Assembly (NCBI GenBank): GCA_038322035.1
Contig: JBBQFO010000001.1
Span: 17,366 to 81,365, forward strand
Direction: 5' to 3'
Origin: Candidatus Obscuribacterales bacterium
GTDB lineage: Bacteria; Cyanobacteriota; Vampirovibrionia; Obscuribacterales; Obscuribacteraceae
DNA length: 64,000 nucleotides
This document shows positions 38,838 to 54,079 of the stretch, one piece after another (position 1 is the stretch's first letter; each line of letters opens with the position of its first letter). The notes beneath the pieces are model-generated. The model was not told the DNA's origin and did not search any database. It saw nothing but the letters and a program-made list of their open reading frames with translations. Made by a program: the position numbers and the translations under genes.

Positions 38838-38859
38838 CCCGACTGTTTCTGCAGTCGGG
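38838..38859 (+). promoter_or_regulatory. Hairpin immediately upstream of the nicotinamidase-like gene (terminator or leader structure)
   Basis: CCCGACTG-tttctg-CAGTCGGG. A U-tract (TTTTCGTT) begins 5 nt after the stem, 30 nt before the start codon. Confidence 0.4.
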
Positions 38860-38890
38860 CACAGTTTTCGTTCGTACCTATGAAAGGATA

Positions 38891-40009
38891 TTGAAGTTGG
38901 CTAATCAACAGAAGTATGAGACGCAATTGCCGGCATCTTTCGATCAGAATAACGTCGGGCTTTTCGACGAAATCGACTTCCGGGAAAACATTGACCAGGC
39001 GGAAGCGTACGAAATCGCTAACCACATCGAACAGCGTGAAAACGACGCTGCCGACGAAGTCGTCAAACTGGCGATCATCGACAATCAGGTCGACTTCGAT
39101 CTCAAAGAAGGGCGCTTGACCATATTCCCGGCAGCTGTGCGGGACCTGATCAACTTGCTGCTCTTCATCTTCCACAATCTGCGCATCATCTCTGACATCA
39201 TTGTCACCTTAGACAACCACCTTCTGGCCCACATCTTCTCGCCTATCTTCTGGGTGTCAGCCGCTGACGGCAAGACTCACCCATGGCCCGGTTCCAAAGG
39301 CGAGCTGACCGCTATCTTCCCCGACGACGTGGGAACCAAGTGGAATGTAAACCCGAAGATGGTGTGGATCTGCCTGGGCAAGAAGGCAACGCCGGAAAAT
39401 ATCGCCGAACTACAAAAGTATGCGAAGTGGTATTGCGCGGAGTTGCTCCGTCAGGGCAAGCCACCGCTGGTGGTGTGGCCCGTGCATTGCCGTCTGGGCA
39501 GCAAAGGCGCAGCACTTGTCCCGGCTCTGATGCGTGCCGTTGACTTCTTCGACGTCGTTCGCGGGAGCGTCAGCACTTGGCGCGTCAAAGGACTGAACAA
39601 GCTCACTGAAGGCTACAGCCCGTTTGGCGACGAAATCAAAATGTACGGCAAGACGAAGGTCGGCGAAGACTCGGTTGCCGTCATTCAGGATTTGCTAAAC
39701 TGCGCCATGCTGATCATCGCTGGTCAGGCCCTCAGCCACTGCGTGCGGGCGGCTATCTATGACATCATGCGCCAGATTTTGGAAATGGAGAAGGCTCAGG
39801 GCATTGATCCATCACAGTCTTTGACACGCAAAATCTACATTCTCGTCGACGCCTCCTCACCTGTGCCGACCTTCGAAAAGCAGGCTCAGGATGCACTCAT
39901 CGACTTCAAGAATGCGGGCATGAACGTGGTCCTGACCACAACTCCGATTCGCGACTGGCCCAATCTGCCAAAGGGCGTCGCCGCGAAGATTGATCGGTTA
40001 GCGGCCTAG
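38891..40009 (+). CDS. Expanded PncA-type nicotinamidase / isochorismatase-fold cysteine hydrolase
   Basis: Ordered motifs: 'AIIDNQVDF' (Asp), 'LDNHLLAH' (DxH..H metal-site-like), 'VVWPVHCRLGSKGAAL' (WPxHC), 'VKGLNKLTEGYSPF' (Lys, YSxF), 'IIAGQALSHCVRAAIYD' (nucleophile Cys). TTG start at 38891 or 38897 (AAGGA at 38884-38888). About 150 aa longer than canonical PncA, with an acidic N-terminal extension, an internal insertion and a C-terminal extension. Confidence 0.75.
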   Translation: MKLANQQKYETQLPASFDQNNVGLFDEIDFRENIDQAEAYEIANHIEQRENDAADEVVKLAIIDNQVDFDLKEGRLTIFPAAVRDLINLLLFIFHNLRIISDIIVTLDNHLLAHIFSPIFWVSAADGKTHPWPGSKGELTAIFPDDVGTKWNVNPKMVWICLGKKATPENIAELQKYAKWYCAELLRQGKPPLVVWPVHCRLGSKGAALVPALMRAVDFFDVVRGSVSTWRVKGLNKLTEGYSPFGDEIKMYGKTKVGEDSVAVIQDLLNCAMLIIAGQALSHCVRAAIYDIMRQILEMEKAQGIDPSQSLTRKIYILVDASSPVPTFEKQAQDALIDFKNAGMNVVLTTTPIRDWPNLPKGVAAKIDRLAA

Positions 40010-40034
40010 ACCGCACCATTGTCGGCTCACAACT

Positions 40035-40062
40035 GCACCGGGATTGGTATCACTCCCGGTGC
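40035..40062 (+). terminator. Hairpin between the nicotinamidase-like and vWA genes (weak terminator/attenuator)
   Basis: Perfect 9-bp stem GCACCGGGA/TCCCGGTGC with a 10-nt loop, followed by CTTATTCG. Confidence 0.45.
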
Positions 40063-40097
40063 CTTATTCGACTCTATTGATAAGGAAGGTGAATACC

Positions 40098-40958
40098 TTG
40101 AGCGATCTCAATCTGCAAGATATCGATTTGGACGCCTTGACTGCTGATAACGAAGGCACAGACGCACTTGGCTTCGAAGCATCGAACTTGATCAACACGC
40201 TGGGGGCACAAATCGCGGCCACCCAGTCTCCCATCGATCTGGGCGCCGACCCCGGAGAAGCTAAGCTGCTGATCGGTCTGGAATTGGACAACAGCCCTTC
40301 GATGGGATGGCACTATGCATGTGGTGATGCTAGCTGGATCACCACTCTGAAATACCATGGATTGGTGGCGAAAACCCTTCTCGAAAAGAAAGTCCCCGGC
40401 GACAGCGAAATGCTGACGTTCTTGCTCAACCAGTACCCTGGCTATGTTCAGCAGGTGCTGGGCTCAGGGCACGCTGAATTCACATGGGCGAACCTGAGCA
40501 AGGTACCGATCATGCTCATCCCCACCGAAGTATCACAGTATCTGACCGGCGGCACGCCTCTCTACGAACGCTCTCGCATTTTCCTCGCCAGCATCAAGAC
40601 GCGCGCGCTCTATTGGCAGCAGACTGAAAACATCCCGTGCCGGAGTGTGTCGGCGATCATCTCTGACGGTGGCAGCACTGATGACGTGCGGTACCGCGAT
40701 CAGTATGCCGATGAGTGCAAACTTCTGATCGCCGAACTTCGCAAGAATCGTATGCACCGTGTCCTGTTCGTCGGCATTGACGACGGCTCAACGGACTTCG
40801 TCGCGGTTGCCACACGCATGGGCATTCCGGCCCACGACATCCGCGTCATCAGTCAGAATACCGACGATCTGGGCGAGTTCTTCCTGCAATTCAGCCAGAT
40901 GTCAGTCACAGCCAGCCAGACTGCCGGCCCAATCGATCACATCAAACTCGGTAACTAG
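40098..40958 (+). CDS. TerY-like vWA domain protein (triad component 1)
   Basis: MIDAS 'LELDNSPSM' (DxSxS), 'TGGTPL', 'IISDGGSTDD'. TTG at 40098 is preceded by AAGGAAGGTG. The ORF-track start at 40044 lies inside the 40035-40062 hairpin. Confidence 0.75.
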   Translation: MSDLNLQDIDLDALTADNEGTDALGFEASNLINTLGAQIAATQSPIDLGADPGEAKLLIGLELDNSPSMGWHYACGDASWITTLKYHGLVAKTLLEKKVPGDSEMLTFLLNQYPGYVQQVLGSGHAEFTWANLSKVPIMLIPTEVSQYLTGGTPLYERSRIFLASIKTRALYWQQTENIPCRSVSAIISDGGSTDDVRYRDQYADECKLLIAELRKNRMHRVLFVGIDDGSTDFVAVATRMGIPAHDIRVISQNTDDLGEFFLQFSQMSVTASQTAGPIDHIKLGN

Positions 40959-40981
40959 ACCTGCGCTCCGTGTTCTTGGTT

Positions 40982-41014
40982 GTGGACCGGCGGATTTCCG
41001 CTGGTCCACTTTTT
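40982..41014 (+). terminator. Canonical Rho-independent terminator between the vWA and PP2C genes
   Basis: 12-bp stem GTGGACCGGCGG-attt-CCGCTGGTCCAC (one G-U pair) followed directly by TTTTT. Confidence 0.75.
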
Positions 41015-41055
41015 CACCTTTAAGAGCCGGATGCGCGATCGAACAGGAGGAACGC

Positions 41056-41922
41056 ATGGAATTACCTTTCAGTCTATCGGGTGGCACTTTTCCCGGTTAC
41101 AAATCGACGGGTACAGACATACCTAAAGGTGGGCGCAATCAAGACAGTCTGATGGGTGTTATCGGAGATGGCTACATTGTTATCGCCGTCAATGACGGTT
41201 GCAGTGGTAATCCCGAACAACACTTGCAGTCAGAACTCGGAGCGCTCGCCGGTAGTCAAATTGTTTGCAGTGTATTTGCAGACATCATCGAATCGGGACA
41301 GCCACTATGGGAAACTGTCACCGATGAAATTGTCGATCAACTCAGCCTTATCGCCGTTGCCTTAAGTCACGGGCGCAAAGAGCGCCTTGAACATGTGGTT
41401 CGCAAATACCTGATGTTCACCAGCGTCGTAGCTGTGATTGGACCTGAGGAAACAACGATCGCCACCGTCGGTGATGGCTACTATGCAATTAACGGTGGTG
41501 ATTTGAAACGTATTGGCCCTTACCCGGATAATCAGCCTCCCTATCTCGGATACTTGCTCTACCCCAACAACTATCCTCGGGAATTGCTGACGTTTCAAAA
41601 GCAAGTGCAGCTACCTACCGCAGACTTGCAATCGTTGATCATGGGCAGCGATGGGCTGGGTGAAGTGGCGGCTAGCGCTAATAAACGTTTGCCCGGCAAG
41701 TCTAGCCTTGTTGGCTCTCTCACTTCGCTTTTGGACAATCCGCGGTTTTTCAGAGGCGGTAAGAATCCTGAGAACGGAGCGCTTGTACCATGGTTGCGGG
41801 GGTTGAACAGTTCAGTTAGCAGAATTGTTTTCAATCCGGGGAACGGCAAGCCCGATATCGAGTACTCGGCTCCACTGATCGAAGACGACTACACCTGCGT
41901 ACTTGTAAAACGCACGCTCTAA
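41056..41922 (+). CDS. PP2C-family Ser/Thr phosphatase (triad component 2)
   Basis: ATG with AGGAGG 5 nt upstream. Blocks 'GGRNQDS','IAVNDGCSG','IMGSDGLGE','EDDYTCVLV'. The ORF-track 5' extension (40759-41055) overlaps the vWA gene and crosses the terminator. Confidence 0.8.
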   Translation: MELPFSLSGGTFPGYKSTGTDIPKGGRNQDSLMGVIGDGYIVIAVNDGCSGNPEQHLQSELGALAGSQIVCSVFADIIESGQPLWETVTDEIVDQLSLIAVALSHGRKERLEHVVRKYLMFTSVVAVIGPEETTIATVGDGYYAINGGDLKRIGPYPDNQPPYLGYLLYPNNYPRELLTFQKQVQLPTADLQSLIMGSDGLGEVAASANKRLPGKSSLVGSLTSLLDNPRFFRGGKNPENGALVPWLRGLNSSVSRIVFNPGNGKPDIEYSAPLIEDDYTCVLVKRTL

Positions 41923-41955
41923 GTATGAGGGGACCAAAGCTCGAAAGGAGTCTGC

Positions 41956-43947
41956 ATGTCTCAGCACATGACTGTCTATATCGCCGGAAAGCCATACACA
42001 TTTGACCCCGATGATGTGTGGAAAGAAGGCGGCGAAGCTTACATATACAAATATGGAAGCGACGCGCTTTTGCGATACTATCGTCGCCCTGACGATATTA
42101 GGTTTGCGGGTACAACACCGGAGGACAGGCAAAGACAACACTTTGTCGAGCTGAGGCTCGAAGAGTTACAGAGAAAGCTGCCTGTCTTTCCAAAAAATCT
42201 ACCGGAACGCGTCGTCACGGACAGGGAACTAGTTTGGAACTCGATCGACCAGCGCAGTAGACCCAGAATCGTGGGCAGCATTGTTCCGTTGATACCAGAT
42301 GCAGTGACTTTGCACGAGCTCGCCTCGGCCAAATTCCGGCGCGAAAACACGATTGGCGACGTAGCGGTGATCGACATCCTCAAGGACTTGTATGCCACCG
42401 TATGCGGCGTGCATAAAGCTGATGCTGTCATCGGAGACTTCAACACCGAGAACGTGCTCGTTCAGCCGTCATTGCTCCGTGCACCTTTGGTCGATGCTCA
42501 CGCTATGCAGTTTGGATCCTACCTGTGCGCTACCTATACGGCACGTTACGTCGATCCACTGGTGGCTCGGTGGGCAGCCAGCAAGGTCCCGGGCGAACCT
42601 GGTAGCGTCGAGATGATCGGCAGGCATTCACCGCTCACGGACTGGTATGCCTACCACTTGATGTTCTGGGAAATGTGGTATGCGCCGCTCTATGGAGGCG
42701 TCTATAGACCGAAGACAGGTGCCACCATGGTCGAGTTCGAGGAGCGTCCATTTCACAGCCCCAGGCTCTCCGTCTTGCATCCCGATGTTGCCTATCCAAA
42801 GCGTGGATTTCAAGATTACCACACGGCACCACCAGAGATACTGGAGCACTATCGTAATCTTGTCACAAAGGACCTTCGCGCCCCTTTTCCCGAGAAGTTT
42901 CTCGACAACCTCCGAGTCGCATACGGTGGCACATACTTGGCCACCCACACGCCCGTACCGGCTGTCCCAGTCGGCATCTCTATTATCAGGTCAGGGCCTG
43001 CATCATCGACGTTGATGTTTGAGACCACAGGCACCATCCTTGATGCTGCTTATCACGGTGGTAGACTGCGCTTTCTCTGCTCCAAAGATGGTCGATTCTA
43101 TCGTGAAGGGGCGAGAACCAAGGGCGACCTCGACATCGGAAAGGGATCATTCAACCCTAAGGTTGCCTACATCATCCAGGGCGATAGCACGATACTCGCC
43201 AAGGAAGGCGGTAAGGCCACACTAATTGCACCAGGGGCAGCGCCACTACAGCTTGATGCAGAGCGCTATCGTCAGGGCAAGCCGGTTGTGGCTACCAACG
43301 AAAACTTCTACTACTGGGCCGGACAGGGTAAAGTTCGGCGCAAGCCGAAGCCTGATCCTCAACTAGCCATGTTCGTCACGCCACAACCAGTCGAAATCTG
43401 CGAAGCGCTGCAGGAGCAAACCCGCATTTGGGTTGGTCCCAAGTTTGGTTTTGCCTTCAGTGCTACCGCCAATTTCGCCAAGGCGTTTGTTTTCGATGCC
43501 GAAAAAGCCGGAAATCTGCCTGTGGACTTGGAACCGCTGTCAGGCAATATTGTGGCTATCCGCTGTTACTTCAGTGACGATCGGCTCTGGCTGTTCACAA
43601 CTAAGAAAGTGAACGGCAGCAACGTCAACAAATGCACGTTGATCGATAGCAACGGTAAGCGGCTTGCTGCTTCGAAAACGGTGGCCGATGGAGACGATTC
43701 TTGGCTCGGCTCAATTGACGGCAAGTGCGCAGCTCTGTTGCCCGCGCCAGGCGGGAAGATCGAAGCGCTGCTTTCCGTTACCGCAGACGGTGTGGTTCTC
43801 GTGCAACAATCAGGCGTCAAGCTATCAGGAAGCTCGGCCTTCGAAGGAACCGCGACATTGGTGAATGCTGATGACAACCTGTTCTACAGCCCCGATGGTT
43901 TATATGCCTGGAACAGCAACAGCATCAGGTTGATCAAAACATCGTAG
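41956..43947 (+). CDS. Ser/Thr protein kinase-like protein with ~330-aa beta-rich C-terminal domain (triad component 3)
   Basis: Gly-rich loop 'KEGGEAYIYKYG', catalytic-loop-like 'VHKADAVIGDFNTENVLV', DFG-like 'LVDAHAMQFG'. AAGGAG RBS. The C-terminal half has no motif I recognise. Confidence 0.75.
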   Translation: MSQHMTVYIAGKPYTFDPDDVWKEGGEAYIYKYGSDALLRYYRRPDDIRFAGTTPEDRQRQHFVELRLEELQRKLPVFPKNLPERVVTDRELVWNSIDQRSRPRIVGSIVPLIPDAVTLHELASAKFRRENTIGDVAVIDILKDLYATVCGVHKADAVIGDFNTENVLVQPSLLRAPLVDAHAMQFGSYLCATYTARYVDPLVARWAASKVPGEPGSVEMIGRHSPLTDWYAYHLMFWEMWYAPLYGGVYRPKTGATMVEFEERPFHSPRLSVLHPDVAYPKRGFQDYHTAPPEILEHYRNLVTKDLRAPFPEKFLDNLRVAYGGTYLATHTPVPAVPVGISIIRSGPASSTLMFETTGTILDAAYHGGRLRFLCSKDGRFYREGARTKGDLDIGKGSFNPKVAYIIQGDSTILAKEGGKATLIAPGAAPLQLDAERYRQGKPVVATNENFYYWAGQGKVRRKPKPDPQLAMFVTPQPVEICEALQEQTRIWVGPKFGFAFSATANFAKAFVFDAEKAGNLPVDLEPLSGNIVAIRCYFSDDRLWLFTTKKVNGSNVNKCTLIDSNGKRLAASKTVADGDDSWLGSIDGKCAALLPAPGGKIEALLSVTADGVVLVQQSGVKLSGSSAFEGTATLVNADDNLFYSPDGLYAWNSNSIRLIKTS

Positions 43948-44082
43948 ATCATCGCTGCCCCGGGCTAGTACCAAATGTGGTGCAGGCGATAGCCCGCACC
44001 ACTGACTAACTTCAATCTGAATTCGTGACTGAGTAAGGAGTTTTCATGCGTCGTTTCCGCGTCGTCGCGACGAAAGTCTGCC

Positions 44083-44130
44083 GGAAGAAAGGCTTGGTGT
44101 ATCCAAGCCCTTTCTTTCTCTTTTCGTCAT
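44083..44130 (+). terminator. Strong Rho-independent terminator ending the PP2C-kinase transcription unit
   Basis: About 15-bp stem GGAAGAAAGGCTTGG-tgtat-CCAAGCC(C)TTTCTTTC followed by TCTTTTCGTCATTTC. Confidence 0.75.
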
Positions 44131-44231
44131 TTCATGCGCCTCTTTGTACTTTTTTGTACTTTTTCGACATTTGCTCACCTGTATTAACTCCTCTATATAG
44201 TATATTCTTTGGAAGAGTAACATTGGGGATC

Positions 44232-44269
44232 GAGGTAGAAACTGACGGCTTCTAAAATAAAGCCGTCAG
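44232..44269 (-). terminator. Terminator after the last gene of the NAD operon
   Basis: 10-bp stem CTGACGGCTT/AAGCCGTCAG with an 8-nt loop. On the minus strand it is followed by TTTCTACC. Confidence 0.55.
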
Positions 44270-44295
44270 CAACATCGTAGATTGGTGGCATCGAT

Positions 44296-44859
44296 TCAGA
44301 CCAGACTGATGCGTGGATCATTGAATCGACTCCAGTTTGATTTTTCAATCTGGCCTGTATGTTTATTTGTGTTTGTATCCTGATTGCAGGCTCCTTTGTG
44401 GACTTGAACGGTACAGCTCGGGACGAGGCTTAGAAGGCCAAGCACGGTTTCTAACACGCAATAGTTCGTGTTTACGCCGCAAGCGACGAACTGATCGATG
44501 CAGCAGCCCAAGTCTAAACATGATTCGATTACCTGGAGCGAGCCATCATTGTGTTTCTTTTCCGCTATCATTTGATTTTGATAGCCAGCTATGAGAGCCA
44601 TTAGCCTCTGCTGGGTGTGGCAGCCTAAGCACTCAAGCAAGACGATTCCTGCACCTTGTTGCCTCGCGTTCACCATTAAATTTGTGACAGCTGCCACAGT
44701 GTTTTCGTTCAAGCTTGCCGGAAATCGATCATCGAGCATGTCGACCACGACCAATGTGGCCGGTAAGTTGTTGGAGGAGACTGCTAGTCTTTGCTGTGCT
44801 TCAAACCAGATAGACCTTGCGTGCCTTTCAAACACGGTTGTTTTCCTTACTCTGGGCAC
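44296..44859 (-). CDS. Isochorismatase-fold cysteine hydrolase (nicotinamidase candidate)
   Basis: 'ATLVVVDMLDDRF' (Asp), 'AEKKHNDGS' (Lys), 'FVACGVNTNYCVLETV' (Cys). GTG start. Confidence 0.7.
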   Translation of the reverse strand: MPRVRKTTVFERHARSIWFEAQQRLAVSSNNLPATLVVVDMLDDRFPASLNENTVAAVTNLMVNARQQGAGIVLLECLGCHTQQRLMALIAGYQNQMIAEKKHNDGSLQVIESCLDLGCCIDQFVACGVNTNYCVLETVLGLLSLVPSCTVQVHKGACNQDTNTNKHTGQIEKSNWSRFNDPRISLV

Positions 44860-44977
44860 TGTCGATTACTTCTTTGATCCGTGGATTGTGCTCTCGCTTG
44901 CAAGATAGAAGGCTGTTTCTTAACCCTCGATCAAGCAAGCGAGTTGAGATCTAAACGCCGTGAAAGTTAGACCCTGA

Positions 44978-45262
44978 CTATTGCGAAGTCTCTACTTGCC
45001 CTGTCAGTCCACGTGTTTGCTGAGCCACTTTGAGCACTCGCTTTGGCAAACACAAGGCGGCGAACTTTGACCAAAGTTCTCCCTTTTCCGATGCAATTGC
45101 CTCGACGTAATTCTTATGCGCCGCTTTGAAGTGGGTGTTGAATTCGGCACAGAGAGATTCGAATTGTTGCTGGTCTAGTGCCAGCAACAATATCAACATG
45201 GCGCGAGGAGATTGATCGCCTCCGCCGCTTGCAAACGAGGCAAGATAAGTTGCCAGATTCAT
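44978..45262 (-). CDS. Hypothetical 94-aa protein within the NAD operon
   Basis: ATG at 45262 ('MNLATYLASF') is preceded by AAGAGGAA. The longer ORF-track start overlaps the upstream gene. No motif recognised. Confidence 0.5.
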   Translation of the reverse strand: MNLATYLASFASGGGDQSPRAMLILLLALDQQQFESLCAEFNTHFKAAHKNYVEAIASEKGELWSKFAALCLPKRVLKVAQQTRGLTGQVETSQ

Positions 45263-45311
45263 GGTTTGTTCCTCTTGATCTTGACCTGATGAAGCCTGAC
45301 CGCACGCCGGA

Positions 45312-46163
45312 CTAACAAGCATTCATCGCTCGAGCCCGATTGATGATCAATCTGTGATCGAAGGCGATGTCCTGGGTTAACAACCAGTCCGTTTCGACAA
45401 TCTCCAAACTCTCCGCATCGTCTGCAGCCAGCATGTTTGCGTAGATCTCGTGTTCCCGATGAGCCGGGACGAACCAAGCGTAACCATGGTCAACTACTTG
45501 CTGCCGGGAGTCACGACGTGGGCCTGAGCGCACGTCCACGAGAACGAGTTCATCAGGCGAGACGATTACGTGCGTTTCTTCTCCGGCTTCTCTCGCACCG
45601 CACTCATCAACCGTTTCCAACTGGCAGAGCAGGAAGCCTCCAGGCAAAGACCACTTTCCAGCATCCGGGTTGTGTTTGCGCTTGATCACGAGGATCTTTT
45701 TGCCACCTTCAAGAAAGATGGCTACAGATGAAGTAGTGTCGGCCTTGGCGAAGCGATACGTGTATAAGTCACTCCAGTTCTGCCCCAGAAGTGATGGCAC
45801 CTCGCCTGCATGGGCAAGCTGGAAAGATTTCTCATTGAGCAGCTTGAGAGCTGCCCAGAGACGGTCACTTTCCTCCTCGTCAGTGACCAATGCGTCGACG
45901 ACTACAATTGGCTTCATGCCTCGCTGATACACTTTCTCAACTGCATCAAGAAGCGTTTGGGCAGTAACAGCGCCGGCGATAAACACGATGCGCGGTCCAC
46001 CCCGACCCAGCGGAGGAAGGCGCTTGGTGTTTTTACCAACGGCGACGTGAACGCCTGATTTCTCACACAAAGCGGCAAGCTCTATGCCCGTGGCTGCATT
46101 TTGATTATCACCAGTAATGGAAGCAACTGTCGATACTAATAGCAGTGAGTATTTGAGTTTCAT
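45312..46163 (-). CDS. Fusion protein: degenerate (Cys-less) isochorismatase-like N-domain + Nudix hydrolase (ADPR-pyrophosphatase-like) C-domain
   Basis: Nudix box 'GGFLLCQLETVDECGAREAGEETHV' preceded by 'GKWSLPGGF'. The N-terminal 'IVFIAGAVTAQTLLDAVEKVYQRGMKPIVVVDAL' resembles the C-terminal half of the isochorismatase fold, with Gln where the nucleophile Cys sits. Confidence 0.7.
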   Translation of the reverse strand: MKLKYSLLLVSTVASITGDNQNAATGIELAALCEKSGVHVAVGKNTKRLPPLGRGGPRIVFIAGAVTAQTLLDAVEKVYQRGMKPIVVVDALVTDEEESDRLWAALKLLNEKSFQLAHAGEVPSLLGQNWSDLYTYRFAKADTTSSVAIFLEGGKKILVIKRKHNPDAGKWSLPGGFLLCQLETVDECGAREAGEETHVIVSPDELVLVDVRSGPRRDSRQQVVDHGYAWFVPAHREHEIYANMLAADDAESLEIVETDWLLTQDIAFDHRLIINRARAMNAC

Positions 46164-46185
46164 TTTGCCATCCCTTCTTATTCGT

Positions 46186-46213
46186 GAGCGCGCCGACTCT
46201 CCCCGGCGCGCTC
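46186..46213. other. GC-rich perfect hairpin between nadE and the Nudix-fusion gene
   Basis: GAGCGCGCCG-actctccc-CGGCGCGCTC. No U-tract on either strand, so it may be an mRNA processing or stability element. Confidence 0.4.
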
Positions 46214-46237
46214 TGTTGATCGAGGATTTAATAGAAA

Positions 46238-48259
46238 CTAGTTGGCACTAATGCTCTGTGCGTGATCCATAGCCGCGTACTCGCGCATCGTGGCAAGCTC
46301 TTCTCCGTATCCCCCGGAAAGAATGGGTGAGCGCCGCCACGTACGCGGATCCAGATTGCGCGTGTCGCAGTGCAGGGCGGGCGCCAGTCGTTCCCGTTTC
46401 CACTGGTTGATGCTCCACTTCGTGAAGAACTTGTTTACCCAGTCGCTAATCTGCAGAGGTGCATACTGTGCGAAGCTGACGCGAATAAGCTGATAGCACT
46501 CGATTGGCGAGCGATTGTTTTCGATCGCCTCCTCTTCGATGGCATTCAGCACGTCGTAAGGCATCAAGTCTTTCTCGTCTGTCTGCGCCTGCTCGAGTGG
46601 ACGAAGTTCTGCCGTTGGTTGCTGCTTGGTGATGTAAATCAACTCTGGAATTGGACCAACTGCGACTGGACCTTCGTTCTGCAACCAGAGCAGCCACCAC
46701 TTGAGGAAGCATTTATCGATTCCTGCCACTGGCGATAGACCACCGGCAGTGTCACCGTCCATGGTGCAATAGCCGACTGCCCCTTCTGAGCGATTGCTCG
46801 TCGATAGAAGCAGCATGCCGAAGATGTTAGCGAGAAGCCAAATCATTGGTGCGCGCACGCGAGCTTGAACGTTCTGTAAGGGAATGTCGTCTTGCTGCCA
46901 AGTCAACTCTCGGCCGATTACCTTTTCGGCAAGCTTGATGTATAGACGGACAATTGGCTCAATGTTGAGCGCGAAGAATCTAGCACCGACGGACTCCGCC
47001 ACTTTCTTGGCGGCATTGCGCGTGGTGCGTGAACTTTGCTTGGTGGCCTGGTAGGCGCAAACCAACAAACGATTAACCAGTTGCTCCTTTGTCATGCACC
47101 TGTCGAGACCCTTGATGTGAGCCAGCTTGGCCTTGAAACCATCCAGTCCAAGGTCGGCGACACCGAAGTCCACCATCAATTTTACCTGGCAAGCCACTGC
47201 GGCGGAATCGGCACCACCACTAATTGAGAGCATGAAGCCGTTCGACATGCTCTTGCGCAGGTAGTCGAAAAGTCCAAGCGGAATAACCCGCGAGAATTCT
47301 TCTTCCTTGATTCGAACACTGGTCTCCCAGGGCTCCTGAATGATTGGAGCCTGAGCTTCGGGGTGCAGGGGTGGGAAAGTGAAATCAATCTCCACACAGC
47401 GCTCATCTTGCTTGCCCGTGATCTCAGGCTTGAAGCTGCCAATGCGAGATTGCATCATTCGTGTGTGCTCGATGTCCACGACCGCTGTGGTGAGCACGTG
47501 ATTGTGATATGAGAAGCGCGGGCCAATGGCGGCGAACTTGCCAGCTTGAGCGATGAGGACGTCACCATCGTAGATGGCTCGACCGGCTTCGTTGCCGATC
47601 AAGTTGACGAAAATGTAGGTGCAGCCGAAGGCTCTTGAGCCCTCCAGCACAAGTCGATTTCGCGTCTTCACTTTAGCGAAACTGAAGTGACTGGCTGACG
47701 GATTGATAATGACATCAACAGCTATTCCGACCAGATGTGTGCCGTCTCGCTTGCCTTTCCATGCGCCTTCGCAGATTTCGAAACCGAGTGTTATGTCGCC
47801 GACGCGGAAGTACAAATCACCAATCAGGTAAGTCTGCCCATCCTTTTCGAACTGCTCGACCAGGTCTTCGGGCCAGGCTTCGAACTGCCGAGCCTCATAG
47901 TGAATGCCGTCGTTTGCCAGCGCCTTCTTGGCGACGAAACCGCAGATGGTGCCGTCTACAACCACTGCAACGCAGTTGTAGATTTTGTTCTTGTGCAAAA
48001 TCGGCAATCCGAATGAGACCACCATGCCGTGCGTCAGCGGCAGAAGTTCCTGCAGCATCTTCCATGCCCGTTCGCGCAGATCCGGGCGAAAGAAGTCGTC
48101 TTCGCAACCATAGCCCGTAGTGCACAGCTCAGGCAGGCCGAGGATCGTCACACCTGCCGCTCTTGCTTCGGCAATGGCGTTTTGAATGTTGAGCCGGTTA
48201 TTTGCCCAACCAAACGGAGTCTGATTAAGGGCAGCACCGGCAACTTTGATCAGTTTCAT
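46238..48259 (-). CDS. nadE: Glutamine-dependent NAD+ synthetase (CN-hydrolase + NAD synthetase domains)
   Basis: N-terminal nitrilase-type domain ('GLPELCTTGY','GFEICEGAW'). PP-loop 'SISGGADSAAVA'. The 673-aa length is typical of the fused glutamine-dependent form. Confidence 0.9.
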   Translation of the reverse strand: MKLIKVAGAALNQTPFGWANNRLNIQNAIAEARAAGVTILGLPELCTTGYGCEDDFFRPDLRERAWKMLQELLPLTHGMVVSFGLPILHKNKIYNCVAVVVDGTICGFVAKKALANDGIHYEARQFEAWPEDLVEQFEKDGQTYLIGDLYFRVGDITLGFEICEGAWKGKRDGTHLVGIAVDVIINPSASHFSFAKVKTRNRLVLEGSRAFGCTYIFVNLIGNEAGRAIYDGDVLIAQAGKFAAIGPRFSYHNHVLTTAVVDIEHTRMMQSRIGSFKPEITGKQDERCVEIDFTFPPLHPEAQAPIIQEPWETSVRIKEEEFSRVIPLGLFDYLRKSMSNGFMLSISGGADSAAVACQVKLMVDFGVADLGLDGFKAKLAHIKGLDRCMTKEQLVNRLLVCAYQATKQSSRTTRNAAKKVAESVGARFFALNIEPIVRLYIKLAEKVIGRELTWQQDDIPLQNVQARVRAPMIWLLANIFGMLLLSTSNRSEGAVGYCTMDGDTAGGLSPVAGIDKCFLKWWLLWLQNEGPVAVGPIPELIYITKQQPTAELRPLEQAQTDEKDLMPYDVLNAIEEEAIENNRSPIECYQLIRVSFAQYAPLQISDWVNKFFTKWSINQWKRERLAPALHCDTRNLDPRTWRRSPILSGGYGEELATMREYAAMDHAQSISAN

Positions 48260-48316
48260 GACTTTCCTCTCTGAATAGGATGAATGTCGATCAGCTTTTC
48301 GTCTTCACGTCAGTGA

Positions 48317-49801
48317 CTAGGCGCCGCGCGCAAGAAGCTGGAGCACCTGCTCGACGAGAATGTGGGATATTGGTCTAACTTTGAGGAAATCGTCAGCCAA
48401 TCTGACCGCATTTGGATGACTATCGCTGACGATCACTTCGTTGAATAGAGGCTCACCGCTCAGGTCTACTGCCGTGCGCAACCGCTCCAGCGCACCATCG
48501 GGAAAGATTCCGTGCGAAGCGACGAATCGAATCTTTTTGCAGCCGGAACCGACTACACCAGCGCTTCCGTTGCGGTAGCCTACGGCCGCCTCAATGGCTG
48601 TGGTGCCGCGCCTGATCATATCGTCGAAGAGGTCGATATCGCGCCCCGCCACATCACCAAGCACGCCCAGTAATTCCGTTTCTGAGCCACTCTTGCGATC
48701 TTTGAGGGCGAAGGCGGCTTGCCAAAATAAATCACTGCTGACGCCGCGAGCTTTCAGTCCTCTATTGATGTCTTTGACCAGCGACTCGGCCCACTTGCCG
48801 CGACCGGCATCGGTGGTGCAGATCCGTCCGTTGAGGCTGTCTTTTTCTTTCACCATATCCATGATGATGCGCTTGACGGAATACACGTGACTGGTGCGTA
48901 CGCGGTCAGAGAAGTATTGAGGGATTCCTTCCGAGTGCAAGTCATTGAGTACGATGCGATTGCCCAGAGGGCAAAGGGGAATCGACGAGAGTAGACGAGC
49001 ACGATAGGCTGCTTTCACAGCTTCATGCAGTTCAGGCTTGCCGCGCTCCATCGTCGAGTAGCCAAAGTATGGAATGACGATAGTCATGCTCAAGGCATCG
49101 GCCTCGAACACTGCGTTGGCTAGGACGTACAAGTCCAGTGTCTCGGTGTGATCGATGGTACCGCCAATGATGACAACATCCCGACCGGCGACAGAATCGC
49201 CGACTGCAGTGACGATGCCGGCTTTGTCGCGGAAACACACACCGGCTTCGAAGTCAGCTAGCGCCTCAAACTGCTTCAGCATGTAGCCGTAACTTTTCGT
49301 CGCTAGAAGCACCGGTTTGCCGCGCGATTCGAACAAGTCAATGGCCGCGCGTCGGGAGATTGGTTTGGCAGCTTGTCGACGCGCCACGGGCTTGTCGTAG
49401 AATGGCATCGCCGTCGATTGCGGATCAATCTGTATAAAGCGGTTTCCCATCGCTGTCTCAGGAATTGCCGAGAGCATGCGAACCTGAACTCGCTGAAGGA
49501 AGAGTTCCTGTCTGGTTTTGCCTCTACTTTCCGGACTCACTACGGTCAGTCCAAATGCGCCCTCAACGACAACCAGACTGGCGATGTCGAAGAGCTCGAA
49601 GGTCGCATCCGCATCTGAGAAGTTGAAATTACCAACCACTACCGCTTCGTTGTACCCGATTGGTGTGACAAGTTGTTGATGAATCTCGTGATCCGGGAAT
49701 GCCTCTTGCAAGACCTCACCGCAGATGGTGCCAGGTTTGGCTAGCAATCGGGTGGCGATAGCTGCGGAGCCACCCGCTGTCAGGAAAATTATCTTTTGCA
49801 T
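48317..49801 (-). CDS. Ribose-phosphate pyrophosphokinase (Prs)-family enzyme with additional degenerate N-terminal half-domain
   Basis: ATG at 49801 with GGAGAA upstream. Residues ~190-494 carry Prs blocks 'VIPYFGYSTMERGK','NDLHSEGIPQYF','LFDDMIRRGTTAIEAA'. Residues 1-~130 look like a second, degenerate Prs N-half ('FPDHEIHQQL','ELFDIASLVV'). Confidence 0.75.
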   Translation of the reverse strand: MQKIIFLTAGGSAAIATRLLAKPGTICGEVLQEAFPDHEIHQQLVTPIGYNEAVVVGNFNFSDADATFELFDIASLVVVEGAFGLTVVSPESRGKTRQELFLQRVQVRMLSAIPETAMGNRFIQIDPQSTAMPFYDKPVARRQAAKPISRRAAIDLFESRGKPVLLATKSYGYMLKQFEALADFEAGVCFRDKAGIVTAVGDSVAGRDVVIIGGTIDHTETLDLYVLANAVFEADALSMTIVIPYFGYSTMERGKPELHEAVKAAYRARLLSSIPLCPLGNRIVLNDLHSEGIPQYFSDRVRTSHVYSVKRIIMDMVKEKDSLNGRICTTDAGRGKWAESLVKDINRGLKARGVSSDLFWQAAFALKDRKSGSETELLGVLGDVAGRDIDLFDDMIRRGTTAIEAAVGYRNGSAGVVGSGCKKIRFVASHGIFPDGALERLRTAVDLSGEPLFNEVIVSDSHPNAVRLADDFLKVRPISHILVEQVLQLLARGA

Positions 49802-49842
49802 ATTTTCTCCAGTGCTCGTGATAGGAGATAAGAGAGAAGATC

Positions 49843-51342
49843 TCACGCTTCGGATTGAAGAAAAGCGAGGCGCTCTTCTTCGCGCTTGCCGCGGTAGACG
49901 TCCATGTAGTGCTGAATAAGCGGCGACACTTCGACGCGGGTGTATTTCCCCCACGTCTCATTGGCACGCTTGCCCTGTTCGACGAGCGACTCGTTGTAGA
50001 CGATGCGGCCCTGCTTGACCAACTGAACATAGAGGGGAATGCCATCCACAACCTCGGACTTGTCGGCGATATACATCACCTCGCCAATGCCGTAGACGCG
50101 TATAGTGCCGGGGTAAGACTCTTTGCCCGGGCTGTTCGAGAACTTGATGTTCGGGTTACCGTCGGTTGCGGACCGCTTGAAGGCAGCCGACACCGTGTCA
50201 CGATGAACCTTACGCCAGAAGTAACCGCCTGCTCCCGGGAAGAGGTTGTTTGCTTCTTCTCCTGTCTGGGCAACGAAGAAATCCTCCACCTCAATGCATT
50301 TGGTTGGATTGACCTCGTCTTCGTAAACAATGGTGCGGTCAGGAGTGATGCCAGCTTTGCGCATCGCCAGAAAGTACTGAACACATTGCGCGGCGATTTC
50401 TCCAGAGTCGATGCGACCGCCCGCCTTGATCGCTTCTGGATGCGCCAGGAGCGCTTTGATGAAGTTGCGCAAGCCGATTGTTTCCGCGTCGATTAGATCG
50501 CAGAGGAGCTTGCTGTCCGGCACTCGGGTGAGCGCCAGGTCCATCATCTCGTACTCGGCTTCGGACAGCGACTTGTCGAGCCGTTGGTTTGAGCACATCA
50601 GCTCGTGCCCCAGTGTGCCAATTGACTTGAACAGATCCGGCCACATGAATTCAGCCGTGTCATTCGAAGTCAGAATCGGTTTGCCGCCTCCGCCAACGAT
50701 CATGGCGTGCAGCAAGATGATGTTGTTCAGCTCGAGCACCGCAGCGCGCAGACCGAACTCGGCAAAGTTATGCGAAGATTGGCTCATCAGGCGAGTCTTA
50801 GTCGCCTGGATGACAGGCGCGAAGTAGCGGCACATGGCCGGCTCAATCAACGTGATCAGTCCGCCAATGCCTTCAAATGACATTGCCGGCACGTTTTTGA
50901 GCATCGTCTGCCCGCCGGGGAAGCCCCAGACATCGATGTCGAGGTCGATGTTGCGGCGGCGTGGATTGCGCGCCAGGACGTCGTCCCACAGTTCATGCGG
51001 GAACGCCTTGACGTTGGCCTCGGTGCTGCACCAGTAGCGTGCGATCTCAATGTCGCCGCGCTTAAGGGGCTGATTGAACCACTGCGCAAGCATCGCTTCG
51101 TGACCGGCCATGATCAACTGGTCACCGGCACCCGGCTCGTCCAGCCCGCGCCGGAAGGTGAGATGATAGGAAGCAGGCTTGAGCGAAAAATCAACCGATG
51201 CCGCACTCATGGTGCGTTTGTAAGTGTCGGTGGCCGTGATCATGCCACCGAGAATGAACATCCGGCGGTAGAATTCAGCAATCATTTCGGCGCGTTTTGC
51301 CTTGACGGCTTTTTCTATGCGTCCATTTTTGGCTTTACTCAT
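49843..51342 (-). CDS. Type II phosphoribosyltransferase of the NAPRT/NAMPT family
   Basis: ATG at 51342 with AGGAGA upstream. Blocks 'ATDTYKRTM','FAEFGLRAAV','SIGTLGHELM'. By eye it is closer to the long (~490 aa) nicotinate PRTases than to NadV. The substrate cannot be decided from sequence alone. Confidence 0.75.
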   Translation of the reverse strand: MSKAKNGRIEKAVKAKRAEMIAEFYRRMFILGGMITATDTYKRTMSAASVDFSLKPASYHLTFRRGLDEPGAGDQLIMAGHEAMLAQWFNQPLKRGDIEIARYWCSTEANVKAFPHELWDDVLARNPRRRNIDLDIDVWGFPGGQTMLKNVPAMSFEGIGGLITLIEPAMCRYFAPVIQATKTRLMSQSSHNFAEFGLRAAVLELNNIILLHAMIVGGGGKPILTSNDTAEFMWPDLFKSIGTLGHELMCSNQRLDKSLSEAEYEMMDLALTRVPDSKLLCDLIDAETIGLRNFIKALLAHPEAIKAGGRIDSGEIAAQCVQYFLAMRKAGITPDRTIVYEDEVNPTKCIEVEDFFVAQTGEEANNLFPGAGGYFWRKVHRDTVSAAFKRSATDGNPNIKFSNSPGKESYPGTIRVYGIGEVMYIADKSEVVDGIPLYVQLVKQGRIVYNESLVEQGKRANETWGKYTRVEVSPLIQHYMDVYRGKREEERLAFLQSEA

Positions 51343-51499
51343 CACGGGTCTCCTTTGCGAAGTCCAACCAGGCACTGTGGTTCTCTGGACTTGATATGAG
51401 GACAATAGGAACGACTAGGCACCACTGGTAGTGCGGTTGCTGCTGCAACTAAACTAACGAGGCAAGGTGTGTGAAAGTCCAAAGCAGTGCGTGTTTGGT

Positions 51500-52117
51500 C
51501 TAGCGATAGAGCCGATGTCGCACAGCGATGTTGCGGCAGTGAAAATTCGGGAAGAGATAGTCGGCGGAACGAGCGCGTCCGCTTTTTATCCAACTGCGGA
51601 TCAGTGTGCTGGAGATGTCACTACCGGGGCAGTCTATGATGTTGAAACGAGCTCCTGAGGGGAGCAGTTTGGCGATGATTTGATGGTCTGCATTCGCCGA
51701 ATCTCGAGGAGCGACGAGTAACTCACTGAGTTTGAAGATCTCGTCAGCTTCCATCCAGTGATTAATTGGCTCGATATTGTCCAGCCCGACGATCAAGAAG
51801 AATTCTGCATCGTCACCATACTGCGCCTTGAGAGCACGCAGTGTGTCGACGGTGTAAGATTTGCCCGGTCTGTCGATCTCGATGCGACTGGCGCGGAAAT
51901 GCTTTGCCCCTTTCGTGGCAGCTTTGACCATGCGGAAGCGAATTTCTTTTGGAGCGACATCGTTCTTGTGTGGTGGATCTCCGTTCGGAATGAACAGCAC
52001 AAAGTCCAGATGGAACTGATCCCAAGCACATTGCGCAACTTGCATGTGCCAGAGATGGATGGGATTGAAGGTGCCCATCGAAAGACCGATTCGCAACTTC
52101 TTCTTGCGAACCCGCAT
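51500..52117 (-). CDS. nadD: Nicotinate/nicotinamide-mononucleotide adenylyltransferase
   Basis: 'GTFNPIHLWH' ((H/T)xGH motif) and C-terminal 'ISSTLIR'. ATG at 52117 with GAAAGGG upstream is preferred over the TTG at 52180. Confidence 0.85.
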   Translation of the reverse strand: MRVRKKKLRIGLSMGTFNPIHLWHMQVAQCAWDQFHLDFVLFIPNGDPPHKNDVAPKEIRFRMVKAATKGAKHFRASRIEIDRPGKSYTVDTLRALKAQYGDDAEFFLIVGLDNIEPINHWMEADEIFKLSELLVAPRDSANADHQIIAKLLPSGARFNIIDCPGSDISSTLIRSWIKSGRARSADYLFPNFHCRNIAVRHRLYR

Positions 52118-52410
52118 ATGCGCCCTTTCTGCCAGGTCTTCGCCTGGTCCAATAGCTGGCGAGCCTTTCCGTTTGCTCAAGCAGCAAGCGGAAAAAAAAC
52201 AGATTGTTACTTGAAGTGCGTCTTAGAGAGAGTCTCGTTATATTGGGTTGTTGGAGGAAAGATGTTATGAGCTTACTTAATAACAAGCAGCACAAGCAAA
52301 TATTCTGGATGATTTGTCTCAGTCCTGAACGATTAATACGCAGTGATTACTACTTAAATCTAATTCCACTCACGTTCAGCGCTAGCGGAATTCGCGTGTA
52401 ATTATTGTTT

Positions 52411-52441
52411 TCAAAAGAACGGCAAAGCATCACTGCTTTGC
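52411..52441 (-). terminator. Terminator overlapping the stop codon of the GGDEF gene
   Basis: Stem GCAAAGCA/TGCTTTGC with the TGA stop in the loop. On the minus strand it is followed by CGTTCTTTTG. Confidence 0.55.
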
Positions 52442-54079
52442 TGGCGCGGCAATCGGTCCTTTGACGACTCTATTTCGTCCAGTCTGTTTAGCGTGCAGCA
52501 AAGCACCATCAGCGGCATTAACCCAATCTCCCAATTCCATGTTTGCTGAGTCGAGCATGGCCACGCCAGCGCTGAAGCTGGAGTGAAATTTCTCATCCTG
52601 CGCTGGGTGCTCAATTTCTGCGAAATCGGTTAGTAACCTTTCCGCTAAAGCGATAACTTCTGATTCACGCAAATCTTCCACGATAATGACAAACTCTTCC
52701 CCGCCGTAGCGACCGACCAGGTCTGATTTGCGCATTCTTCTTCTGAGCAAATTTGCCAAAGAAACAATCACTCTGTCGCCGACTGGATGTCCATATTTAT
52801 CATTGATTGACTTGAAGCTATCTATATCGATGATAATCAATCCGATACTTTTTTCTGGTTGTCTTACTTTGCGTGCTAACACCATTTTTGCCATACTCAT
52901 GAATGCTGAGTGTGTCAACAGTTTTGTCAGCCCATCTCTGTGGAGAAGAGACTTTAGAAATCTCGCCCTCTCAAGTTTGGCTGCCACTGTCGATAAGAGC
53001 AATGATGGCGGCACTGGTTTGATTAAATACTCATCGCCGCCAGCTTTCGCAGCTCGAATTTTGGCGTCGATTTTGGATTCTGTCGTCACAAATATGATTG
53101 GCAACGTGGCATAAGCCTCATTTTGGCGGAGATATTTGGCAAGTTCATACCCACTCACATCAGGGAGCATTATGTCCAACATAACAAGATCTGGTTGGTG
53201 GCTTGTTAGCGCCGCATCGAAAGTTTTTTCATTGCTGCATATTTCGATATCGTATCCGGCTGCCGACAAAACCACACGCACAAATTCTGATTGATAAGGG
53301 TCATCTTCGACGTAGAGCACTCGATAATCAGGAGCTTTGGGCACTTCCAGCAAAAAACGCATACGCTCAGCTAAGTCTTCTAAAACGAAAGGTTCCTCAA
53401 AAAATCCATCTGCTCCGCAGTGAATTGCTTGCACCTTATCTAGAAATCCCGCTTGCTGACCGACGATCAAAGCGGCCTGCGCATCACTTTCCGCTAAGCT
53501 TCTGAATTTTTCAACAAGTTCATAGCCGGACCCACCATCTAGTGGAATCGATACGATTAAGCCATCGAAAGTTTTCGAAGCCATCAGTGCGGCCGCCTCG
53601 GAATAATTGAGGGCGAACTCAATTCGAGCTGCATGCTCTTTGAATAAATCGTGAAATTTTGCGCGACGATTAGGGTCATGATCTACAACCAGAATATCTC
53701 TCGATTCTGTGTCTTCATCACGACTGACTTTGCTCTTTCCTGGTACGAGTTGCTCTCCCTCGGCAAAAGCGTTGCGCGCAGATTCGACAAATTTCTGCAA
53801 TTTCTGCCCAATTGATGCTGACGCGACACCTGCACTTTCCACGCAGTTTTCACAATATTGCTCTGCTTCTTTTCCTAAACTCGTCAGCTCAGGCATTCCG
53901 TAAATACCACCTGAACCTGCCAACCAGTGGAAGTGATGCCTGATCTGCTTGATGATCACTAATGGCTCTGACTGATCGTTCATCTGCGCGATCAAACTTT
54001 CAATTTGCTGTAACCGTTCGCGAGATTGAACCAAATATCGACGCTTGAGATCGTTATAAGCATTCTGCCATTCAATCAT
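52430..54079 (-). CDS. HPt - degenerate REC - REC - GGDEF diguanylate cyclase
   Basis: HPt-like 'HHFHWLAGSGGIYG'. REC1 'DGLIVSIPLDGGSG' has Ser at the acceptor position. REC2 is canonical ('DLVMLDIMLPDVSG','LIKPV'). The GGDEF domain has 'GGEEF' with the I-site 'RKSD' five residues upstream. Confidence 0.9.
   Translation of the reverse strand: MIEWQNAYNDLKRRYLVQSRERLQQIESLIAQMNDQSEPLVIIKQIRHHFHWLAGSGGIYGMPELTSLGKEAEQYCENCVESAGVASASIGQKLQKFVESARNAFAEGEQLVPGKSKVSRDEDTESRDILVVDHDPNRRAKFHDLFKEHAARIEFALNYSEAAALMASKTFDGLIVSIPLDGGSGYELVEKFRSLAESDAQAALIVGQQAGFLDKVQAIHCGADGFFEEPFVLEDLAERMRFLLEVPKAPDYRVLYVEDDPYQSEFVRVVLSAAGYDIEICSNEKTFDAALTSHQPDLVMLDIMLPDVSGYELAKYLRQNEAYATLPIIFVTTESKIDAKIRAAKAGGDEYLIKPVPPSLLLSTVAAKLERARFLKSLLHRDGLTKLLTHSAFMSMAKMVLARKVRQPEKSIGLIIIDIDSFKSINDKYGHPVGDRVIVSLANLLRRRMRKSDLVGRYGGEEFVIIVEDLRESEVIALAERLLTDFAEIEHPAQDEKFHSSFSAGVAMLDSANMELGDWVNAADGALLHAKQTGRNRVVKGPIAAPAKQ

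Follow-up and report, generated by a model that had tools for sequence, protein, structure and literature searches.

We analysed a 64,000-nucleotide stretch of the genome of a Candidatus Obscuribacterales bacterium (contig JBBQFO010000001.1, positions 17,366 to 81,365 of the forward strand; hereafter the window). Within 38.9-52.2 kb lie 11 open reading frames (ORFs), four on the plus strand and seven on the minus strand, which face each other across a gap of 348 bp, as mapped by an earlier first-pass annotation of the same DNA. The plus-strand genes (g1 to g4) encode a predicted nicotinamidase, a von Willebrand factor A (vWA) protein, a PP2C phosphatase and a kinase with a beta-propeller. Together they constitute a near-obligate, mobile module, here called the cassette, that is found chiefly in uncultured phages, with further copies in diverse bacteria; its vWA, PP2C and kinase genes are referred to as the triad. 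The cassette of the window comprises:

38897..40009, plus strand: g1, long-form PncA-like nicotinamidase of 370 residues (AlphaFold2, Foldseek, invariant active site)
40098..40958, plus strand: g2, vWA-domain protein with a full metal ion-dependent adhesion site (MIDAS) motif and a conserved SQS...GGFG tail (motifs and profile matches)
41056..41922, plus strand: g3, PP2C-type Ser/Thr phosphatase of 288 residues (Pfam PP2C_2, E 2.3e-8)
41956..43947, plus strand: g4, Ser/Thr protein kinase with a C-terminal beta-propeller (invariant residues, family profile, AlphaFold2/Foldseek)

Single-sequence searches of g1, g2 and g4 against Pfam, PHROGs, PADLOC and the PDB returned nothing useful, and family profiles and structure prediction were required. 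The start codon of g1 agrees with that of the NCBI protein entry (P0128). Distant homologues of g1 are titled "nicotinamidase-related amidase", some of them carrying PF00857. A set of 40 homologous sequences, which was also the basis of the AlphaFold2 alignment, gave a model with a predicted local distance difference test score (pLDDT) of 95.1 and a predicted TM-score (pTM) of 0.92. In a Foldseek search of this model against the PDB, ranks 1-18 were all nicotinamidases (E 1e-9 to 2e-5), with target-normalised TM-scores of 0.69-0.81, apart from 0.50 for 9u8m; the top matches came from Acinetobacter, yeast, Leishmania, Drosophila, Pyrococcus and Streptococcus, and carbamoylsarcosine, biuret and maleamate amidases appeared further down the list. 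The catalytic triad of D62, K231 (KG...YS motif) and C282 (SHCV) is invariant in 40/40 sequences, as are the metal ligands D106, H108 and H197 (TLDxH and WPxHC motifs), and the metal-site motifs align with those of PncA in a hidden Markov model (HMM) alignment. The protein is about 150 residues longer than canonical PncA, owing to an N-terminal extension and an insertion. From its sequence and model, g1 is predicted to be a catalytically intact nicotinamidase.

The start of g2 likewise corresponds to its NCBI protein entry (P0168). The single sequence has no Pfam match, and g2 was assigned as a vWA protein because of its motifs and profile matches: the MIDAS residues (DxSxS, T and D) are invariant among 103 relatives, and 11 of the 12 PDB matches of the g2 profile are vWA proteins (best match 4cn8, E 5.7e-5), with TRAP, integrin I-domains, CobT and NorD among the matches. 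A full HMMER scan resolved the family into 140 clusters at 50% identity. The ATG of g3 at 41056 is preceded by an AGGAGG ribosome-binding site, and the PP2C_2 match recurs in the cassette of a gut-phage contig (locus L118, E 4e-10). In g4, a kinase domain (approximately residues 1-320) is followed by the propeller (approximately 350-663). The catalytic residues K40, D161, N166 and D180 and the glycine loop are invariant in the family alignment, the family profile matches eukaryotic-type kinases in the PDB (E 3e-3), and the homologue P0126 matches Pfam Pkinase (E 4.7e-6). The AlphaFold2 model of g4 is of moderate quality (pLDDT 69.5) and its C-terminal half is all-beta; Foldseek assigned this half to beta-propellers and aligned LRRK2 over kinase and WD40 domains. 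Approximately 13 of 30 g4 relatives carry a Zn ribbon between kinase and propeller, which the g4 of the window lacks. The names given to the four genes in the first-pass annotation (PncA-type nicotinamidase, vWA protein, PP2C, kinase) thus hold, with the propeller as an addition. The closest cassette relatives, L002 (702-2981) and L185 (3336-5402), have a second kinase-propeller paralogue just 5' of the cassette, 36-47% identical to g4, which is not found in the window.

The distribution of the cassette was examined by fetching genomic and viral loci (numbered L001 onwards). A search with the g1 alignment found at least 574 relatives in species-representative genomes, mostly of cyanobacteria, and 183 in IMG/VR; a second scan was seeded with a 7-sequence kinase alignment, the 30-sequence alignment having no sufficiently conserved stretch. 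Clustering of the ORFs in the fetched loci placed g1 in 159, g2 in 92, the PP2C gene in 85 and the kinase gene in 85. All four genes are present in 62 of 80 viral loci, and the kinase-seeded viral loci contain g1 and g2 in 13/13 cases and the PP2C gene in 12/13. The 80 genome loci include 10 with all four genes, 10 with a partial set and 59 with g1 alone, and the full cassette is also found in 13 independent bacterial loci, the window counted. Clustering of the kinases at 60% identity gave 41 groups. The gene order is fixed as pairs, PP2C-kinase and nicotinamidase-vWA: g2 is always adjacent to g1 in cassette loci, and the PP2C gene neighbours the kinase gene in all cassettes. These pairs are arranged either as PP2C-kinase-g1-g2 or, in the window and about 45 gut-phage contigs, as g1-g2-PP2C-kinase. 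The first-pass annotation had treated the nicotinamidase gene as separate from the triad; the co-occurrence of all four genes makes it the fourth member of the module.

Among GenBank phage records the cassette occurs in four, all uncultured, of which three are huge phages of 460-595 kb; no cultured phage with the cassette was found there. No fusions between cassette genes were found, the long ORFs being over-extensions in a high-GC contig. The gut-phage contigs, L118 and its relatives (IMG/VR 3300045988_*), encode a TROVE-like vWA protein with DUF2828/DUF7788 (8340-9791 in L118) directly 5' of the nicotinamidase, so that the gut-phage version has a pair of vWA genes of different types in close proximity. 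The cassette contigs L027 and L036 are binned as Candidatus Woesearchaeota (archaeal) and Absconditabacterales (candidate phyla radiation), respectively; the binning of L027 may be wrong, since this contig carries bacterial-type nadA, nadC and nadB.

Examination of the cassette neighbourhoods shows that it recurs beside genes of nicotinamide adenine dinucleotide (NAD) biosynthesis, salvage or ADP-ribose metabolism, or beside the gene for the ADP-ribose-responsive repressor NrtR. Among bacteria, the order in L087 (Entotheonellaceae) is NrtR-PP2C-kinase-g1-g2-PncB, L027 has nadA-nadC-x-nadB immediately 5' of the cassette, and NrtR is divergent from the cassette in five cyanobacterial loci (divergent upstream in the L042 group); other neighbours are NadD (L016), Prs (L008) and a divergent Nudix gene (L078). 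Among phages, L104 has the order PncB-NadE-g1-g2-x-PP2C-kinase, with NrtR further on, and L111 has PncB-NadE-PP2C-kinase-x-g1-g2. Across the phage loci the neighbours include canonical PncB, NadE and NadD, Nudix, Macro and WGR-PARP proteins, NrtR and an NAD-dependent ligase; the Nudix protein appears NadM-like by eye, Pfam confirming the Nudix domain only. PncB, NadE or NadD lies within 10 kb in 17/41 cassette lineages, against 3/65 loci with g1 alone (Fisher p = 4e-6), a contrast confounded by the cassettes being mostly from phages and the stand-alone loci mostly from bacterial chromosomes. Of the independent bacterial loci, 7/13, the window counted, have adjacent NAD genes or NrtR, compared with a rough expectation of at most 8%, itself estimated and not measured (binomial p ~2e-5). 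The stand-alone relatives of g1 (cyanobacterial and myxobacterial) adjoin NrtR in six loci, which assigns this family of enzymes to the NAD salvage regulon.

Further genes related to ADP-ribose were seen near cassettes. A protein with WGR, PARP_reg and PARP catalytic domains, a eukaryote-like PARP architecture, is encoded in L096 (1585-2871) and also in L095, L109 and L168. Macro-domain genes lie a few kb from the cassette in the P0124 contig (JGI 3300045391), L090, L095, L101, L110, L111, L176 and L180, and in L180 the Macro-domain gene sits between g1 and g2. SLOG domains are linked to NAD- and ADP-ribose-derived ligands; a faint match to LSDAT_prok, of the SLOG family, lies in L185 (107-970), 5 kb 5' of a window-type cassette.

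On the opposite strand of the window, the cassette is met by a second set of genes, which, with the gap between the two arms, reads as follows:

43948..44295, no strand: convergent intergenic gap with hairpins at 44091-44109 (plus strand) and 44242-44269
44296..44859, minus strand: 187-residue orphan, possibly a very divergent isochorismatase-like hydrolase (sub-threshold match to Pfam Isochorismatase)
44978..45262, minus strand: 94-residue orphan ORF (ATG with GAGGAA ribosome-binding site)
45312..46163, minus strand: Nudix hydrolase of the ADP-ribose or NrtR-like kind with an N-terminal domain (NUDIX, E 1.3e-11)
46238..48259, minus strand: NadE, glutamine-dependent NAD+ synthetase (CN_hydrolase and NAD_synthase; NF010588, 1.5e-70)
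48317..49801, minus strand: Prs-like ribose-phosphate diphosphokinase of 494 residues (TIGR01251, E 7e-30)
49843..51342, minus strand: divergent phosphoribosyltransferase (PRTase) of the nicotinate phosphoribosyltransferase (NAPRT) family, 499 residues (TIGR01513, E 2e-17)
51500..52180, minus strand: NadD, nicotinate-nucleotide adenylyltransferase (NF000840, 161 bits against a cut-off of 150)

Seven independent contigs, among L001, L003-L007, L183 and L184, keep the order nadD-PRTase-prs(~493 residues)-nadE-isochorismatase, with nadD as the first gene in all of them; the start of the window's nadD is possibly at 52117. The operon exists in two versions. One combines a canonical 404-residue PncB in the PRTase slot with a 776-residue NadE-like protein (L005-L007, L183, L184); the other, to which the window belongs, combines a divergent PRTase of 500 residues with a NadE of 673. 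Between versions, the PRTases show no tblastn similarity and the NadEs are 23% identical, while NadD and the Prs-like protein are 62-66% identical. In L003/L004, the PRTase is 92% identical to that of the window, NadE 91% and the Nudix protein 72%. The window's NadE carries both expected domains and scores under the equivalog cut-offs. The Prs-like protein is a near-complete phosphoribosyl pyrophosphate (PRPP) synthetase over residues 190-463 (PDB PRPP synthetases, E 1e-16), preceded at approximately residues 18-139 by a weakly matching, Prs-N-like extra half-domain; about 30 full-length relatives retain this extension, and all those of known context lie in a nadD-PRTase-prs-nadE operon. From these proteins, we read the minus arm as the conserved Preiss-Handler NAD+ salvage operon of Obscuribacterales-like bacteria.

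A pncA-type gene is present in 7/7 operon relatives, located after nadE (after prs in L001), and its nicotinamidase motifs are readable. By tblastn, these pncA genes gave nothing in the window other than a weak match on g1. No nicotinamidase is encoded within the window's operon, and g1, on the other strand, is the sole pncA match. The operon is, judging by these comparisons, vertically inherited, its own pncA having apparently been lost in this genome. Compared with its closest relatives, the window lacks three genes after nadE (46164-46237, against 13812-15974 of L003), encoding a pncA-like isochorismatase (226 residues), a thioredoxin-domain protein (239 residues) and a 179-residue protein; the Nudix gene directly follows nadE.

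The Nudix part of the Nudix protein is matched by NadM-Nudix and NrtR models (the latter named NtrR in NCBIfam) at 1e-7 to 1e-6. Its N-terminal domain (45741-46163, about 140 residues) is 68% identical in L003/L004 and has no family match, PADLOC giving a faint CARF-like match (3.7e-3). An isochorismatase fold in this domain is not supported (hhalign probability 1%), and the whole protein does not have the make-up of NrtR, lacking a winged helix. The 94-residue ORF matched no family, and tblastn gave no counterpart of it in the 169 loci searched. The 187-residue ORF matches Pfam Isochorismatase at E 1.3e-3 (19 bits against a cut-off of 27), and gave an hhalign probability of 0.1% against the nicotinamidase profile and no tblastn match (E<=1e-4) in the same 169 loci. 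These two genes end the minus arm (44296-45262), with a GC content of 0.484 against 0.544 for the operon. Among the minus-strand names proposed in the first pass, NadD, NadE, the Prs-like enzyme, the Nudix domain and the 94-residue ORF stand, the PRTase gives only weak matches to the NAPRT family (63 bits against a cut-off of 297), the isochorismatase::Nudix fusion is not supported, and the 187-residue isochorismatase is unconfirmed, leaving g1 as the one solid example of the three isochorismatase folds claimed.

The pairing of a Prs-like enzyme with this PRTase bears on an alternative origin for the NAD+ made by the operon. Phage pathways of NAD+ reconstitution have been described as NARP1 and NARP2 (bioRxiv 10.1101/2024.02.11.579819) and NARP3 (PMC13464706). 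According to PMC13586617, a Prs-like enzyme with a NAMPT/NAPRT-family partner is the signature of NARP1 (Adps and Namat), and a bacterial counterpart in the window would use ADP-ribose and nicotinamide to make NAD+ directly. The two proteins have diverged strongly from canonical Prs and PncB, and the nearest phage family of the PRTase carries the PHROGs label nicotinamide PRTase. However, the Prs-like protein retains the C-terminal helices whose loss (the alpha11-alpha12 module) defines Adps (PMC13586617); its PDB matches are PRPP synthetases and those of the PRTase are NAPRTs only (E 3e-3). Moreover, Prs-like proteins of the same type are paired with canonical PncB in the other operon version, and the operon's NadD and NadE are required solely for the deamidated route. 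We consider a NARP1-type function very improbable and rejected it.

The setting of the locus is that of an ordinary bacterial chromosome. The closest relatives of the window proteins come from metagenome-assembled genomes of Candidatus Obscuribacterales, the flanking genes encode response regulators, tetratricopeptide repeat (TPR) proteins, a GGDEF regulator and large proteins without assigned function, and no tRNAs, phage structural genes, integrase or prophage signals were seen around the cassette. A 1391-residue ORF directly 5' of the cassette (33680-37855, plus strand) is without a Pfam match, and tblastn gave no counterpart in the searched loci. Directly past nadD lies a diguanylate cyclase with Hpt, receiver and GGDEF domains (52430-54079, minus strand), followed by a TPR protein (54260-54781). 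The GC content is 0.539 in the cassette, 0.544 in the operon, 0.47-0.48 in the flanks and 0.502 in the whole window. The impression of a GC-rich block is correct relative to its flanks, but the block is not anomalous, because other parts of the window reach 0.55. The gap between the arms, where the first pass had placed one terminator for each strand, contains a hairpin for each. That of the plus strand (44091-44109) is the single site passing a terminator scan, a count no higher than in shuffled sequences; on the minus strand, a perfect 10-bp hairpin (44242-44269), 27 nt beyond the stop codon and with a weak T-tract as read from the sequence, could be the terminator of the operon.

On balance, we favour reading the locus as two tail-to-tail units, a Preiss-Handler operon and a mobile nicotinamidase/vWA/PP2C/kinase-propeller cassette coupled to NAD salvage. 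The operon would supply NadD, an NAPRT-family PRTase, a Prs paralogue for PRPP, NadE and an ADP-ribose-type Nudix protein. The nicotinamidase would be the output of the cassette, converting the nicotinamide released by NAD+ cleavage to nicotinate, which PncB, NadD and NadE would then use. The kinase/PP2C pair, acting via the vWA protein, may switch or scaffold the nicotinamidase activity, a role suggested because the vWA gene is always beside the enzyme gene and the PP2C gene beside the kinase gene; the propeller would read the signal for this switch. In phages, the cassette may help rebuild or hold NAD+ during infection, and in this bacterium it probably provides the nicotinamidase step now missing from the adjacent operon.

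Several points weigh against this reading, in addition to the confounding of the lineage contrast described above. The nicotinamidase activity and the phospho-regulation are predictions, and the placing of the kinase's phosphorylation target among the cassette proteins is an assumption. Because 59 genome loci, largely cyanobacterial, have g1 without the triad, the enzyme is not inherently under the control of the triad. Another pncA may sit elsewhere in the genome, beyond the 64-kb window. Genes for a vWA protein, a PP2C or a kinase are missing from all seven independent operon relatives (0/7), and no NAD operon is seen on the 10-12 kb contigs of L002 and L185, which hold the nearest relatives of the cassette; the adjacency in the window could thus be partly chance. 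Taken to its extreme, this argument makes the locus an adjacency without functional meaning, a housekeeping operon beside a generic signalling triad with an amidase for a substrate other than nicotinamide. The isochorismatase family does have many substrates, represented among the lower Foldseek ranks of g1, but the metal site invariant in all 40 sequences (DxH and WPxHC) is nicotinamidase-specific, the top 18 structural matches are all nicotinamidases, and unrelated bacteria and phages repeatedly have NrtR or one of several NAD genes next to the cassette. We find such a meaningless adjacency improbable.

The coupling of the triad, as a phospho-switch, to nicotinamide/NAD metabolism was already proposed in the first-pass annotation and gains support across genomes from the 17 cassette lineages and seven bacterial loci with NAD genes or NrtR nearby. 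Its further proposal of the operon as a recovery arm does not, nor is the operon a conserved partner of the cassette: linkage of the triad and the NAD operon in related genomes was looked for and is not conserved, in either the operon relatives or the short contigs of L002 and L185. Nor does the reading hold in which a triad without an obvious effector pointed to NAD depletion or abortive infection; the triad has a conserved nicotinamidase partner, no PADLOC TerY-P match and metabolic neighbours in bacteria, and the NAD-depletion reading fails because the fourth gene would turn nicotinamide into nicotinate and does not destroy NAD+.

A role in defence may nevertheless take another form. The TerY-P triad (Anantharaman et al. 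2012) unites a TerY-like vWA protein with a PP2C and a Ser/Thr kinase, and TerY-P-like modules have been reported as defence systems (Gao et al. 2020, summarised in PMC10542128). The cassette, with its matching triad, a TerY-P-typical Zn ribbon in some of its kinases and a mobile, patchy distribution, might accordingly be an anti-phage or superinfection-exclusion system, in which infection triggers the kinase switch and the nicotinamidase is the effector. Since NARP1 and NARP2 use nicotinamide, according to PMC13464706, its removal would block these pathways, or would relieve nicotinamide inhibition of host NADases, with the operon as a nicotinate-based recovery. We regard this as unlikely: PADLOC TerY-P models match 0/34 cassette proteins, the Pfam families most frequent beside bacterial cassettes are metabolic or housekeeping, with no defence family among the 25 listed, and NrtR control points to salvage. 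The cassette is also commonest in phages, where it lies amid the phages' own NAD+ synthesis genes, and rebuilding of NAD+ therefore fits better than blocking.

The favoured reading, of a mobile cassette coupled to NAD salvage, can be extended to a more tentative one, which we hold to be possible but somewhat doubtful. Here the cassette would be a fourth kind of phage NAD+ reconstitution, using the deamidated route, with a nicotinamidase gated by a TerY-P-like switch that senses NAD+ cleavage or infection state, and would have been captured by bacteria, this one included, to control nicotinamide recycling. NAD+ depletion and its reversal are a central theme in research on phage-bacterium conflict (NARP1-3), and an overlooked module would, if these readings are true, add a regulated, nicotinamide-deamidating entry to NAD+ rebuilding. 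The module is broad: its kinases represent at least 41 lineages, its vWA proteins form about 140 clusters at 50% identity, and both huge phages and human-gut phages have copies. To our knowledge, the targets of TerY-P-like switches are not known; such a switch would gain a concrete output, with a metabolic enzyme as partner. For this genome, the cassette would show how a salvage operon without pncA could still use nicotinamide. It is also a testable case, with a small enzyme of simple assay, one kinase and one phosphatase.

Among known systems, PncA/Pnc1 resemble g1 in fold, catalytic triad and metal site; they differ in that g1 is longer and is co-inherited with a kinase/phosphatase/vWA set. 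We know of no nicotinamidase with such partners. Bacterial NAD salvage regulons are reportedly under NrtR control, as described by Rodionov et al. in 2008, and the g1 homologues and cassettes resemble Preiss-Handler/NrtR salvage in adjoining NrtR, PncB, NadD and NadE, the window's operon encoding the other steps of the Preiss-Handler pathway.

Phage clusters for NAD+ form a second point of comparison. Besides NARP1 and NARP2, these include the pncB-nadD-nadE clusters of NAD-jumbo phages (PMC11662467). Like them, the cassette would be part of a set of phage genes rebuilding NAD+ from breakdown products, and it lies inside or beside clusters of PncB, NadE, NadD, NadM-like Nudix, Macro and PARP genes. 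In contrast, its entry point would be the deamidation of nicotinamide and not the chemistry of Namat, NadV or NadR, and no described pathway has a kinase/PP2C/vWA switch. NARP3 (PnuC and NadR) is unrelated to the cassette (PMC13464706). Term searches of the searchable portions of the NARP and NAD-jumbo phage papers did not return the cassette. The searchable text of PMC9503650 and PMC7824862, on phage NAD/ADP-ribose systems and jumbo phages, mentions no nicotinamidase, PncA, isochorismatase or PP2C, with vWA and kinase only in unrelated uses, and no description of the cassette was found by term searches of the literature that can be searched in this way.

Signalling modules provide the remaining parallels. 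In Deinococcus radiodurans, according to the available text of bioRxiv 10.64898/2026.01.23.701218, a vWA-STPK-FHA-PP2C operon acts in DNA-damage signalling; like the cassette, it joins vWA, Ser/Thr kinase and PP2C components into one signalling module, and it differs, as far as that text goes, in having an FHA protein, in lacking a nicotinamidase and in being chromosomal, unlike the phage-borne cassette. With TerY-P, the cassette shares the MIDAS-bearing vWA protein, the PP2C and the Ser/Thr kinase, the Zn ribbon after the kinase domain in part of its kinase relatives, and attachment to a variable partner system. It differs in the C-terminal beta-propeller of its kinase, which goes beyond the Zn ribbon or OB fold (defence variants) of TerY-P, and in the missing Zn ribbon of the window's kinase. 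A nicotinamidase is the partner that stays constant, most copies of the cassette are in phages, and the genes around it belong to NAD metabolism and not to Ter or restriction systems. PADLOC TerY-P models match neither the window proteins (E<=0.01) nor the 34 cassette proteins (E<=0.1), generic kinase models alone giving matches. The TerY-P identity given in the first pass therefore stands for the vWA/PP2C/kinase architecture and not for membership by these models. NARP1-3 and the pncB-nadD-nadE clusters are already known; the cassette is a variant in which a switch resembling TerY-P has a nicotinamidase as its partner, within NAD salvage.

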